A stretch of DNA of 64,000 nucleotides from Candidatus Kaiserbacteria bacterium (GCA_017134395.1 CP070993.1:189656-253655); one strand, 5' to 3'. Shown: positions 6,607 through 38,795, counted from the stretch's first letter. Program-made: numbers and translations. The notes: a model not told the origin generated them from the sequence alone.

Positions 6607-7887
6607 CTATACTTTTAAAAGCTTCAAAAACGCTTTTTCGTCTGTGTGAGGACCAATGATTGTCAGGTTTAGGTTCTCTGTTTTAAACAAATCTTTTGCA
6701 ACCTTGAGCAGTTGTTGTGCCGTGACCGCATCTACTTTTTTATTGAACGCATCGAGGCCACTTTTCTTACCACGCACAAGTGCTGTGTACCCAATAAACT
6801 GTGCCTGTGCGTCCGTAGTATCAAGAGACAGGGCGAATGTTCCTTTTACGTACTCTTTTCCTTTTTGTAGCTCTTGTGATGTCACAGCTTTTTTAGTTAT
6901 CTTCTTCAATTCTTTCACAATCATAGCGATAGCGTCGTGTGCACTGATGTTTGCAACTCCCGCTCGCATGTAAAAACTTCCGACATCACTGTACACATCA
7001 TTTTCTGCGCGCACGTAGTAGGCAAGCCCTCTCCTTTCACGAACTTCACTAAAAAGCCTACTCGACATACCGCCTCCTAAAATTGCAGCGAGCACTTCGG
7101 CTGCTGCTTCATTCGCATGGTCAAACGGATATGAGGGTACTGATATCACAAGGTGTGTTTGGTCGGTTTTCTTCTTTTTTATATTCACGCGAGGTTCATG
7201 TTGCTCCTCTTCGTACGGAGCACATTCAGGAGTCTCGCCAACTCTCATGTTCTTAAATAGTTTCTCTGCTTCTTTGAGAACCTGTGTCTTAGAGAAAGAA
7301 CCAGCAATACACAGTGCTGAGTTACTCGCCACATAGTTTCGATTAAAGTATTCAGTGAACTGCTTTCGTGTAAATGAAAGAATGTTTTTCTTTGGCCCAA
7401 GGATAGTTCGCCCCAATGGGTGGTTCGCACCAAACAACGTAATGTCGGCATCATCTAACACTGAGCGCATTGGCATGTCTTCGTACATATTAATCTCTTC
7501 GACAACCGCACCTCGTTCTCGTTTTATTTCTTCTGGTGGCAATGTTGGATTCAGGAAAATATCTGAAATAACACTCAACGCAGTACTAATGTGCTTCTTA
7601 TCTACCTTAGCGTAATACGCAGTGTGATCTTTTGACGTAAACGCATTCATTTGCCCACCAACTGCATCTATCTCTTCTGCTATTATCCGAGCACTCTTTC
7701 TGTTCTTTGTGCCTTTAAAAAGCATGTGCTCAAGGAAGTGAGCCATACCGTTTTCTTCTTTTGTCTCATACCGTGAGCCAGTTCCTGTCATCACCATAAC
7801 GGTTACAGACTCTGAGCCGGTTGAAGGTGCGAGCAATACGCGCATTCCGTTTTTTAGTGTATGTGTTTCAAATTTCATAGTCTGCAT
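6607..7887 (-). CDS. M16 family zinc peptidase (pitrilysin/insulinase-like). Start at MQTMKFETH; the track gives 7995.
   Basis: HFLEHMLFKGT inverted zinc-binding motif (HxxEH). An AGAGGT Shine-Dalgarno lies about 7 nt upstream of the ATG at 7887. Confidence 0.8.
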   Translation of the reverse strand: MQTMKFETHTLKNGMRVLLAPSTGSESVTVMVMTGTGSRYETKEENGMAHFLEHMLFKGTKNRKSARIIAEEIDAVGGQMNAFTSKDHTAYYAKVDKKHISTALSVISDIFLNPTLPPEEIKRERGAVVEEINMYEDMPMRSVLDDADITLFGANHPLGRTILGPKKNILSFTRKQFTEYFNRNYVASNSALCIAGSFSKTQVLKEAEKLFKNMRVGETPECAPYEEEQHEPRVNIKKKKTDQTHLVISVPSYPFDHANEAAAEVLAAILGGGMSSRLFSEVRERRGLAYYVRAENDVYSDVGSFYMRAGVANISAHDAIAMIVKELKKITKKAVTSQELQKGKEYVKGTFALSLDTTDAQAQFIGYTALVRGKKSGLDAFNKKVDAVTAQQLLKVAKDLFKTENLNLTIIGPHTDEKAFLKLLKV

Positions 7888-35019: not shown

Positions 35020-36297
35020 ATGATTCTTTCCATTCGAAGTTTATTTGTTGGATTTTTAATCGCCACACTATGGGTACCAGTCTTTAGTGATGCCCAAAAT
35101 GCAGACGATCTTCGAGACAAGATAAACGAACAACAAAGCGAAATCGCTGAAATTGAAACAGAAATCAAAAAGTACGAGCAGCAACTGACTGAAATAGGAA
35201 GAGAGAAACAGACACTTGAAAGTGCCGTTAAAGAACTTGATGTCTCTCGCCAAAAAGTGAGTGCAAGTGTTTCTCTCGCACAGCGTCAAATTAACGCAAC
35301 AAATTCTAGCATCAGTGAACTTTCAGATGATATCGATGCGAAAGAAATACTCATAGGCCAAAATCAGGACGCGTTGGCTGAAACACTTCGCCGGATACAC
35401 GAAACCGAGTCTGGTTCATTCGTTGAGGTAATCCTCGGAAGCGACGATATTTCAAACCTCTGGAATGACCTAGATAGTATCCAGCAATTCCAAATTGTCG
35501 TACGAAACGAAGTGGAAATTCTTGCGGAACAAAAAACACAACTTGAAGACGTTAAAACAAAAAAAGAAATAGAACAAGGTATTCTTGTTGAGCACAAAAC
35601 AGAATTGTCTACACAAAAACGCTCCTTGGATATTAACCGCCAAGCAAAAAACAACCTTCTTAAAGAAACTCAAAGTCGCGAATCTACCTACCAAGAACTC
35701 ATAGCAATTAAACGACAGGCTAAAGAAGAGTTCGAAGCTCAACTGCGAAGTTTTGAAGCTGAATTACAATACATTTTGGATCCGACAACAATCCCACCAG
35801 CAGGGAAGGGTGTGCTCAGTTGGCCTCTTTCAAATGTAACCATTACACAGAATTTCGGAAACACGAAGTTTGCAAGCTCTGGTGCATACAACGGGAGTGG
35901 CCATAACGGGGTAGATTTTCGTGCAGCAATTGGTACACCAGTAAAAGCCACCCTCTCAGGAAACGTAAAAGCAACAGGGAACACAGATGCGTTCAGAGGA
36001 TGTTATTCCTACGGTAAGTGGATACTTATTGAGCACGTAAATGGTCTTGCAACGCTCTATGCTCACTTATCTGATATAAACGTAAGTCCAGGAGAAGCTG
36101 TTGGTACTGGAAAAGTTATTGGCTACTCAGGTAACACAGGATTCTCGACCGGCCCTCATCTTCACTTTACTGTGTACGCCAGTGACGCTGTACAAGTCGT
36201 ACGACTTGGCGACGTTAAATCAAGAACAAACTGCGCAGATGCAAAAATTCCAGTAGCATCATGGAGTGGATATCTTAACCCTCTCGATTATCTTTAG
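35020..36297 (+). CDS. M23 family peptidoglycan metalloendopeptidase with an N-terminal coiled coil (EnvC-like)
   Basis: Signal anchor, long coiled-coil, then HNGVD (HxxxD) and GPHLHF (HxH) M23 motifs. Confidence 0.85.
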   Translation: MILSIRSLFVGFLIATLWVPVFSDAQNADDLRDKINEQQSEIAEIETEIKKYEQQLTEIGREKQTLESAVKELDVSRQKVSASVSLAQRQINATNSSISELSDDIDAKEILIGQNQDALAETLRRIHETESGSFVEVILGSDDISNLWNDLDSIQQFQIVVRNEVEILAEQKTQLEDVKTKKEIEQGILVEHKTELSTQKRSLDINRQAKNNLLKETQSRESTYQELIAIKRQAKEEFEAQLRSFEAELQYILDPTTIPPAGKGVLSWPLSNVTITQNFGNTKFASSGAYNGSGHNGVDFRAAIGTPVKATLSGNVKATGNTDAFRGCYSYGKWILIEHVNGLATLYAHLSDINVSPGEAVGTGKVIGYSGNTGFSTGPHLHFTVYASDAVQVVRLGDVKSRTNCADAKIPVASWSGYLNPLDYL

Positions 36298-36896
36298 TAC
36301 GATTTCTAGCAGATAAGTTCTTCAGACACTTTGCGGCGGAATTAGTTTCCTATCCTAGGTTTCTCTGCATACAATGCATCATAAGGAAGTGATGTCGCAC
36401 AATTTTTGGGAGGCAGAAGAGCTCCAAGACAGGCGATAGAGGTATCAAAGTGTACCAAAAGTTTACACGAAGGTTTCAGGGAGTTTCATCCTGATATAGA
36501 GACAGCTTTATAGATAGAAAAATATGCGAATCCGAACAAAAAATTTTGAAAATAAAAAATAGTAAAAGTATAAAAACGAACGTAAAACAAAAGAGTGCAA
36601 AAGAAGTAACAATAGTCGTCGAAAGCGATGGATTAAACCTAATCCGCACATCCGCATCACTACAGCCATTCTTACATTGCGTGATGTCGCAAAAGATATA
36701 TTGTAGGGCGTATAACACTTCTTTCCCGTCACTCTCCTGTTAAAGGAAGACTAGGAAGAAAACATTATATGCTCTACATTTAAGTAGAGTAAATAATGAA
36801 GTATAAACGTCCCACAACCCGACCGAATCCTGTTTCTCATTTTGATGAGGTGTCTGATATCGTGCCTACTGAAAAAGGGGTGTCCTCTACCCTGTC

Positions 36897-37664
36897 TCAA
36901 ATACCTACTGCAAATTTTTGAATAATTCTTTCTGCCTCTATGCGGCCTGTATCCATCAACATGCACTCGCCTTCTCTATATGTAATCAAACGTGTCTTAT
37001 GCAACTTTTCAGTAAGCACCTCTTTCTTAAACCGATGTTCATTTTTATATTCAATTGATTCAAACAACTCAACATCTAGTTGTTCATCTTTATAAAAAAG
37101 CAATACCAGCACCTCTTCCTCTGTCTTCAACCCAGTGTATTGCACCCTAACTAGCGACCCATTTTTCCAAAGCAGTGGAATTTGCCGCTCTGTGATTTGA
37201 TTAACAATTTGTTGAGTATCTTCAATTGATAAATTTGATTTTAATCGAACTATCTCAGATAAGACCCATTTTATAGAATACAGAATCAGCGTAGAGTCCA
37301 TTTCATTTGCTGAAACTAACCCAGGAACATGTCCTACGCCGCGCTTATTGCGAATATTATAGACGCTCCACAAAATCCTTGGGATAAATTGCCTGAACGC
37401 AATATCCCCTGATGCGTCTTGATAACGCTTTATTTCCCTCTCATCAAATCGTATTAGAGACTGAGAAAATGGTGTTCGCTTAAGATTAAGCTCTATCTCA
37501 ATAATTCTGCGTACTACTTCAACAAAGTGACCTGCATCAAGTTCAGACGGCTTCCATTTTCTAATAGCAAAACTGTTTTCAACCTCTGTGTAAGACTGTA
37601 TTAATTTATCAGCAATATCGTTTCCATATGCTGACTGCAAAAATTTATGAACTATCGGATTCAT
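36897..37664 (-). CDS. hypothetical protein with a candidate HEPN-like Rx6H motif (RNKRGVGH); distal gene of a two-gene operon
   Basis: 255 aa. No family recognised beyond the R-x6-H spacing. Overlaps the upstream gene by 20 nt. Sits in an AT-rich accessory region. Confidence 0.35.
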   Translation of the reverse strand: MNPIVHKFLQSAYGNDIADKLIQSYTEVENSFAIRKWKPSELDAGHFVEVVRRIIEIELNLKRTPFSQSLIRFDEREIKRYQDASGDIAFRQFIPRILWSVYNIRNKRGVGHVPGLVSANEMDSTLILYSIKWVLSEIVRLKSNLSIEDTQQIVNQITERQIPLLWKNGSLVRVQYTGLKTEEEVLVLLFYKDEQLDVELFESIEYKNEHRFKKEVLTEKLHKTRLITYREGECMLMDTGRIEAERIIQKFAVGI

Positions 37665-38214
37665 CGTTTGAACGAATGGACTTGATTAATTTTACCGCCT
37701 CCTTTTTTCCTGGGTTTGAAAGAGCGGCAACCTGATCCTTTCCCTTTCCTGAAATAGTTATCAGCTTTGGCTGGCTTTTAAGGTGTGCAGCAAAATTCTT
37801 TTTATGAAGGCATCCCTGTTTTTCACACTGAGATCTAATTTTCGACGTTGAGTCTTTTGTTTCGTCACCACCAGTGAGTTTTTCAAGTAAATATAAGTAT
37901 ATTAATGCTGCTTCTTGTGTATTTTTCTTATCATTGTTTTTATGTTGAAGGTCATAAACTAGCCTAATCTCACCATCTACCAACTGGGCGATATCCTCAA
38001 AATCATCGTCTCCTATATGCTCATCGGCGATATCATCCTTATGATTGTCCTTATCTGGAATGTTCTTTACTTTTTTTGTTTTAACCTGCCCAATCGTGTT
38101 ACGAATCTCTTTATCAAAAGACTCTATCATCTCCCTTACAAACTTCTCTGTCCCCATAACCTCAAATATTCCATCGTTGAGAGAGAAGACTGCGTGTGTT
38201 TTTTCCTTTTCCAT
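37645..38214 (-). CDS. hypothetical acidic/lysine-rich protein; proximal gene of the two-gene operon
   Basis: 189 aa with an acidic stretch (IADEHIGDDDFEDIAQLVDGE). No motif recognised. Translationally coupled to the downstream gene. Confidence 0.4.
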   Translation of the reverse strand: MEKEKTHAVFSLNDGIFEVMGTEKFVREMIESFDKEIRNTIGQVKTKKVKNIPDKDNHKDDIADEHIGDDDFEDIAQLVDGEIRLVYDLQHKNNDKKNTQEAALIYLYLLEKLTGGDETKDSTSKIRSQCEKQGCLHKKNFAAHLKSQPKLITISGKGKDQVAALSNPGKKEAVKLIKSIRSNDESDSS

Positions 38215-38311
38215 ATAAAGACATATTCCTACTGTTTAAGGACATTATCAAGTTCAATAGGTGCATAAGTCGTTTGATGTCTTTTTCTTGACCTAAACCT
38301 CTACAGTTTAT

Positions 38312-38330
38312 CTCCCCCCACCCCGCCGCA
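38312..38330 (+). repeat. copy 1 of a perfect 19-bp direct repeat, CTCCCCCCACCCCGCCGCA
   Basis: Identical to 41011-41029. The two copies bracket the DUF3800 and TM-protein genes. Confidence 0.8.
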
Positions 38331-38795
38331 TCCATTGAACACCACGGAACAATCTGATACATTTCTTGTACTGGTTGATGTGTACTGGCCACCACATCAC
38401 TTCCCGCAAGGGCGACACAGTCGGCTAACGCACAAGGTTTAGAGTGTGGGGATGCGCAACAATGATAGCGCTTGTAAAAACCGATCCCCACTATACTCTA
38501 CTCCTTGTGCGTTTTTTGATATCCATATAAAAACCCCCAGGAGGAATCATACGCGTCATCGAAACACACTAGATTCAACTCCCAGGGGTCAGTCCCTGCA
38601 CCTGGTCGCTATTATGCAAGAACTACGAGGGAGGTCCTACCAAAACCTATATCCCTCGCAGGTACATTTATACTTGAATGGTTAATGGTTTGCAATGTGT
38701 TTCCCTACCCTGTTGTGGTGTTTGGGTGAAGCTATCCCCATTCGCACATCCACCCTATTGCATTCCACCTACATCGAGGCGTAGTATGCGAGGAT

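Follow-up and report, generated by a model that had tools for sequence, protein, structure and literature searches.

A widespread, unannotated gene pair of Candidatus Kaiserbacteria encoding a candidate HEPN ribonuclease and a partner with a homologous winged helix

Introduction

What kind of system is encoded by the two-gene operon, here called A-B, that lies on the minus strand at positions 36897-38214 of a 64,000-nucleotide stretch of DNA from a Candidatus Kaiserbacteria bacterium (GCA_017134395.1, CP070993.1:189656-253655), hereafter the window? A reading made from the DNA without any database search (the sequence-only reading) had noticed a short HEPN-like motif in the distal protein and had compared the operon with two-component HEPN modules of the abortive-infection or toxin-antitoxin kind. 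The computational analysis presented here extends that reading in three respects, namely that the distal protein B carries its own C-terminal winged helix, that the proximal protein A ends in a homologous one and that the pair constitutes a widespread family. The N-terminal domain of B is conserved in the residues of the candidate motif and is predicted to fold as a helical bundle with the motif placed as in HEPN proteins. A role as a conflict module may follow from these features, and it is weighed below against regulatory, addiction and other enzymatic alternatives.

Two overlapping genes of no known family

Gene A, the proximal partner (189 aa, ATG start), occupies positions 37645-38214, and gene B, the distal one (255 aa, ATG start), occupies positions 36897-37664, both on the minus strand as called from open reading frames (ORFs). 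The first 20 nt of B, counted from its ATG, are also the last 20 of A (37645-37664, minus strand). The two ORFs and their overlap had been described in the sequence-only reading and were recovered at these positions; neither protein had been assigned there to a recognisable family, and scans of A and B against Pfam, NCBIfam, PADLOC and PHROGs agree, as they returned nothing significant.

Both proteins are 100% identical to hypothetical proteins in GenBank, JXR01_01175 for A and JXR01_01170 for B. In the GenBank record, B begins at a TTG codon eight codons later, giving a protein of 247 aa and a gap of 4 nt to A in place of the overlap. This start is probably eight codons too short (window 37640-37664), as translation from the upstream ATG gives an N-terminus like those of homologues and an overlap with A. 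Indeed, the nearest relative, 62% identical, begins with MQQEVEKILETAY at a position equivalent to the start of the window protein, MNPIVHKFLQSAY, and its A and B genes have 17 nt in common. The AlphaFold2 model of B, which has a helix at residues 3-13, also favours the ATG.

Sixty genomic loci with B homologues form the set for all pairing and neighbour counts given below. In most of them, with the starts of B taken as longest-ORF calls, the partner ORF upstream either shares 1-20 nt with B (mostly 4 or 11) or stops within a few nt of it. Overlap or abutment being usual across relatives, tight coupling appears as a trait of the family. The arrangement of two small, adjacent and co-oriented genes that overlap within one operon is also typical of type II toxin-antitoxin systems, whose genes often overlap.

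A candidate HEPN domain in protein B

The sequence RNKRGVGH, in which the R-x4-6-H spacing of HEPN active sites had been seen, corresponds to residues 105-112 of B (R105-N-K-R108-G-V-G-H112; 37329-37352, minus strand) and is the sole R-x4-6-H in the protein. One such match in a protein of 255 aa is about what chance would give, and the motif by itself carries little weight; its significance comes from its conservation across homologues. Among 182 diverse members of the B family, E49, H112, D123 and W133 never change, P95 and E137 are each retained by 181, R108 by 178 and R105 by 177, while N106 and R53 are found in 165 and 159 members, respectively. The candidate catalytic motif is thus an R-x6-H with a polar N after the R, and a second HEPN signature, E49-x3-R53 (E49-V-V-R-R53; 37506-37520, minus strand), lies in the helix modelled at residues 44-58.

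The full-length AlphaFold2 model of B comprises two domains, with a predicted local distance difference test score (pLDDT) of 90.8. The N-terminal domain, a HEPN-like helical bundle covering residues 1-162 (37179-37664, minus strand), was also modelled alone, with a pLDDT of 91.2 and a predicted template modelling score of 0.87. Its core helices are predicted at residues 15-33, 44-58, 88-106 and 119-142, and an insert (59-87) containing a further helix (75-83) separates core helices 2 and 3. In this model, R105-N106 stand at the end of helix 88-106 and H112 in the loop ahead of helix 119-142. From helix positions and topology, R105/N106, R108, H112, E49, N120 and D123 would all be found close to one pole of the bundle.

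In the published definition of HEPN domains, the R is followed by a polar residue, helix 2 bears an acidic E-x3-[KR] motif, and helices 2 and 3 are separated by an insert (PMC3710099). The B model agrees with this definition on four positional features, namely R-N at a helix end with H in the loop, the polar N106, E49-x3-R53 and the insert. This positional match, read off a model, is the stronger argument for considering B as a HEPN protein, and the N-terminal domain probably belongs to the HEPN superfamily as a family absent from current libraries. Metal-independent endoribonuclease activity is predicted for B.

The sequence-only reading had named two checks for its proposal, the predicted structure of B and the conservation of the R and H among homologues. 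As to the former, the modelled helical bundle with HEPN-like placement of the motif is not a refuting fold; as to the latter, H112 never varies and R105 is missing only from a divergent branch that keeps R108. The best structural matches of the model are AF0298 (2hsb) and the HEPN domains of Csx1/Csm6, and chains of HepT, LsoA and AbiV also figure among the structural matches. A Foldseek comparison with the Protein Data Bank (PDB) was not significant, although its weak list is enriched in the same way, AbiV and HepT included.

The winged helix of B and the extent of its family

The C-terminal third of B is a MarR/PadR-like winged helix-turn-helix (residues 165-255; 36900-37172, minus strand). 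An indexed search returned 284 homologues of B at E <= 1e-3, the best 120 of which share 44-62% identity, are called "hypothetical" where named and include none with a Pfam domain. A full HMMER search with the profile of the N-terminal domain against 1.84 billion representatives yielded 871 clusters (50% identity) at E <= 1e-3, and nearly all of the clusters listed have lengths of 245-270 aa. This near-uniform length indicates that the architecture of a HEPN domain followed by a winged helix is fixed over about 870 clusters. Homologues of B are present in cultured strains, including Pseudomonas sp. 30_B, Marinobacter sp. 1-4A, Alcanivorax nanhaiticus, Paralcaligenes ureilyticus DSM 24591 and Polaribacter vadi.

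The partner protein A

Family alignments divide A into a conserved N-terminal domain (about residues 1-45; 38080-38214, minus strand), an acidic, low-complexity linker (about residues 46-95; 37930-38079, minus strand) and a basic, winged-helix-like C-terminal domain (about residues 96-189; 37648-37929, minus strand). The N-terminal domain is characterised by the motif aKIxISLxxGxFEIsGSEeFVxxQIenFkxiI, in which E18 and G21 are never substituted and E23, F25 and V26 hardly ever. The linker has a net charge of -8 in the window protein and is so variable in length and sequence within the family that it is unalignable there, while the C-terminal domain has a net charge of +7. Two imperfect direct repeats of 24 nt (75% identical, 39 nt apart; 37987-38049) occur in the part of the gene coding for the linker and probably reflect low-complexity expansion.

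The C-terminal domain of A is, on profile comparison, homologous to the winged helix of B. When the profiles of the two C-terminal domains were compared with hhalign, a probability of 93% (E 3.5e-7) was obtained, vs 26.7% (E 7e-4) for the full-length profiles. The winged-helix domain PF25051 was found in one member of the A family; beyond weak winged-helix matches, scans of A and of 31 A homologues, member by member, gave no Pfam match, and a profile search gave no PDB sequence match for A. An indexed search with A alone returned only A itself, and its relatives emerged through the neighbours of B homologues.

Conservation of the pair across phyla

The ORF directly upstream of B is homologous to A in 36 of the 60 loci (phmmer E 6e-26 to 7e-5; hidden Markov model). 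A partner with the A-type C-terminal domain adjoins B in at least 51 of the 60, from more than 10 phyla, sometimes downstream of B and sometimes on both sides, and several divergent loci have a partner with a different N-terminal part and the same C-terminal domain (95% probability). Pairwise identities of A and B are correlated (r = 0.68), with a mean of 32% for A vs 49% for B, so that A diverges faster than its partner.

An A-like paralogue stands directly downstream of B in 15 of the 60 loci, some of which have no upstream copy, giving the orders A-B-A' or B-A'; the partner thus appears to have been duplicated or repositioned in some lineages. The downstream gene (L004-L006, L008, L010, L015, L041, L043, L046-L048, L050 and L052-L054) encodes about 170 aa with the same N-terminal motif and winged helix, and is located at about 6750-7300 in most of these loci.

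Partnered loci span Bacteroidota, Proteobacteria, Chloroflexota, Acidobacteriota, phyla of the Candidate Phyla Radiation (CPR), Cyanobacteria, Planctomycetota, Firmicutes and one Methanoregula archaeon. Alpha-, Beta-, Gamma- and Deltaproteobacteria, Verrucomicrobiota and four CPR lineages are included among the carriers of B. Identities of about 45-50% between phyla point to horizontal transfer. The homologue of a Gracilibacteria locus (L026, 6001-6669) has no intact ORF under translation table 11, and tblastn aligns residues 5-229. Gracilibacteria use an alternative genetic code in which UGA is a sense codon, which is consistent with the broken ORF.

A variable island as genomic context

The pair sits in a small variable island of the Candidatus Kaiserbacteria metagenome-assembled genome (MAG), at the beginning of a stretch of lower G+C content and just after murG, gltX and a gene for an M23 peptidase. 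The G+C content of positions 36300-41500 is mostly 0.35-0.39, vs 0.40-0.45 in the upstream flank, and two 500-nt segments at 38000-39000 reach 0.42-0.43. In the nearest relative (L061), gltX and the M23 peptidase gene occur in the same order and are followed by genes for DUF378, an NYN-domain protein and DUF2441, with the A-B pair at the same site in the opposite orientation. The same flank with other genes and a flipped pair indicates that the site is a variable hotspot, and positions 36300-41500 resemble a hypervariable site of insertion.

No third gene is conserved with A-B in the 60 loci, whose flanking genes include those for transposases (IS91, IS1595 and Y2), integrases, subunits of type I restriction-modification systems, AAA_21 and DUF3800 proteins. 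In a Ruminococcus MAG (L038, 765-8115), the pair lies inside a type I restriction-modification operon in the order hsdM-hsdS-A-B-hsdR. The N-terminus of the HsdR of this locus reads ...IRRVGNMTVH..., an R-x6-H like that of DUF4145, a family of the HEPN clan; hhalign of the B N-domain profile with this DUF4145-like N-terminus gave a probability of 0.4% and hence no link. Two of the 148 flanking proteins have a DUF4145 match, and this HsdR may be one of them.

Two neighbours in the window were considered as components of the system and rejected. The former encodes a DUF3800 protein (Pfam E 3.9e-12; 38796-39638, plus strand), is divergent from gene A at a distance of 580 nt and has no homologue in the 60 loci by phmmer; DUF3800 genes flank the pair in two of the 60 other loci and are not phmmer-homologous to that of the window, which is probably a co-resident gene of the island. 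The latter is an ORF of 284 aa (40013-40867, plus strand) with hydrophobic N-terminal helices that belongs to no family of Pfam, NCBIfam, PADLOC or PHROGs on scanning. This ORF has no phmmer homologue in the 60 loci and is unrelated to the membrane-like neighbour of 258 aa in L061.

The gap of 580 nt between A and the DUF3800 gene (38215-38795) contains no convincing gene, has a G+C content of 0.42-0.43, above that of A-B, and includes a C-rich run near 38315-38335. Neither a sigma-70-like promoter nor an Rfam match was found in it, and it may represent the remains of a gene or contain a promoter or RNA that went unrecognised. Scans of the locus for promoters, terminators, repeats and Rfam families were uninformative, with no Rfam family at gathering score in 36000-42500.

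Comparison with known HEPN systems

The HEPN superfamily of ribonucleases was described by Anantharaman et al. (2013, PMC3710099). B resembles its members in the predicted up-down helical bundle, the insert between core helices 2 and 3 and the E-x3-R in helix 2, whereas it is undetected by any HEPN model of Pfam or NCBIfam, has further conserved residues of its own (P95, R108, N120, D123, W133 and E137) and shows a fixed association of an N-terminal HEPN domain with a C-terminal winged helix.

The closest experimental precedent for the role proposed for A, by analogy, is found in the type IX retron Kva2, in which the WH protein, made of small alpha/beta domains and a helix-turn-helix (HTH), is wrapped around the HEPN nuclease, occluding the active site and making the nuclease less toxic (bioRxiv 10.64898/2026.07.14.738597). 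Compared by description, both systems associate a HEPN nuclease with a separate protein having one or more small N-terminal domains and a C-terminal HTH or winged helix. Nevertheless, the HEPN protein of Kva2 lacks the canonical motif that B possesses, and B carries a winged helix of its own. A type IX retron was rejected for A-B, as the locus shows no reverse transcriptase or noncoding RNA: the island has no ORF of reverse-transcriptase size with a family match, and no reverse transcriptase appears among the 25 most frequent Pfam families in the 148 flanking genes.

HEPN-MNT (HepT-MntA, type VII), RnlA-RnlB and LsoA-LsoB (type II) and AbiV (HEPN with an RNA antitoxin) are compact modules in which a HEPN ribonuclease effector has an adjacent neutralising partner, as proposed here for A-B. 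HEPN-MNT was rejected, since A and 30 members of its family match neither a nucleotidyltransferase nor another Pfam family and have no PDB sequence match; in contrast with RnlAB and AbiV, no RnlB-like protein or RNA antitoxin is evident at A-B. We know of no HepT, RnlA/LsoA or AbiV effector with a C-terminal winged helix homologous to that of its partner. The ROQ/HEPN region of Roquin and Csx1/Csm6 also carry HEPN and a winged helix or HTH on a single chain. The resemblance is confined to architecture: domain order and context differ, and B lacks a CARF sensor as well as RING and other eukaryotic parts. Csx1/Csm6 was rejected for want of a CARF domain in B. The winged helix of Roquin binds RNA.

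Proposed function and alternative explanations

The conserved operon, the patchy distribution across phyla and the variable-island context all fit a system-level role, and on balance we infer that A-B is a horizontally mobile cassette acting as a toxin-antitoxin-like or abortive-infection module. In such a module, B would be the presumed effector, a HEPN-type metal-independent ribonuclease, with a winged helix binding nucleic acid, either the target RNA or the DNA of the operon itself. A, translated just ahead of B from the same message, would probably bind B and hold the ribonuclease inactive, using the winged helices that both proteins have and/or covering the basic face of the active site with its acidic N-terminal part, and it may also repress the operon. 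Were A lost, degraded or displaced, for instance when a phage infects the cell, cleavage of cellular RNAs by B would bring growth to a halt.

A bolder and clearly more tentative proposal is that A-B, joined by an additional A-like gene in some genomes, is an undescribed anti-phage or conflict system present across many phyla, even in reduced CPR genomes, in which a HEPN ribonuclease and its inhibitor share a winged helix and A is a nuclease-less mimic. Until its removal upon infection, A might then pair with B or be its competitor for a common nucleic acid. This control logic, possible to the same limited degree as the proposal to which it belongs, would be unlike that of HEPN-MNT, RnlAB, AbiV and retron IX.

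Several points weigh against a HEPN-based conflict module and bear on what else the pair could be. The HEPN fold of B is assigned from a predicted model and finds no match among HEPN sequence families. The sequence-only guess is largely supported by motif conservation, predicted fold and motif positions. In hmmscan of B and 30 family members against Pfam-A, only Abi_C (E 0.16, in two members) appeared beside weak winged-helix matches, and profile searches of PDB sequences with the B alignments gave chance matches only (myosin, a glycosidase). Moreover, a four-member divergent branch of B has T at position 105 with R108 and H112 retained, so that the identity of the catalytic arginine is ambiguous. 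The N-terminal domain could be another helical-bundle enzyme or binding module, with for example a metal site made of E49, H112, D123 and E137 and a coincidental R-x6-H, which would still be compatible with a conflict system of another activity; this is rather improbable. As for A, the strand-turn-strand-helix fold suggested for its N-terminal domain by the sequence pattern, and the contact of that domain with B, are conjectural. PADLOC-DB 2.0.0 returned zero families at E <= 1 for A and B, in a library dating from 2023 that leaves later systems outside. Searches for B homologues came back empty from 72,556 plasmids, 50,697 phage records and 2.9 million viral contigs (IMG/VR), most of the 148 flanking genes match no family of defence or mobile elements, the commonest such family accounting for 3-4 genes, and many of the 60 loci lie between housekeeping genes.

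The absence from these mobile collections, the lack of a matching defence model and the housekeeping surroundings would suit a regulatory, non-toxic pair, in which B is a winged-helix transcription factor with a helical N-terminal domain for sensing a ligand or partner, comparable to the inert HEPN-fold protein MtlR, and A a co-regulator or anti-repressor. That both proteins end in homologous MarR/PadR-like winged helices agrees with this explanation, and non-catalytic HEPN-fold domains are documented (PMC3710099). Yet the non-catalytic HEPN families have lost the R-x4-6-H (PMC3710099), whereas here H112 and E49 are invariant and R105 and R108 nearly so; no conserved target genes flank the pair, and the identity retained between unrelated phyla, together with the flipped pair and other neighbours in the nearest relative, has the look of a mobile selfish or defence cassette. 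A regulatory pair is therefore considered unlikely. A plain chromosomal type II addiction module without phage defence, with A as DNA-binding antitoxin and autorepressor and B as ribonuclease toxin, is a somewhat less remote alternative, still well short of probable. It overlaps the toxin-antitoxin-like or abortive-infection module favoured above and differs from it only in biological role. The small partner encoded first, the overlap, the faster evolution of A, its DNA-binding-type domain and its acidic region fit type II systems, but an A-like paralogue downstream of B, in some loci without an upstream A, is unusual for a classical type II system, the toxin would have a winged helix of its own, and the pair is absent from the plasmid collection, although addiction modules are common on plasmids.

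Significance

If the reading of A-B as a HEPN-based module is right, what is new here is an unannotated HEPN family, its fixed fusion to a winged helix and a partner with the same winged helix; two-gene HEPN modules as such are already known. The family, of about 870 clusters (50% identity), would have been missed by Pfam 2025, NCBIfam 2026 and PADLOC 2023, and the effector and partner with homologous winged helices would represent a new two-gene architecture. Because homologues occur in cultured strains, tests of toxicity, ribonuclease activity and phage challenge are feasible. Should the reading prove wrong, A and B would nonetheless remain two conserved and coupled genes that lack annotation and merit a family entry. 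If it is true, A-B would provide a candidate defence or addiction module for CPR bacteria.
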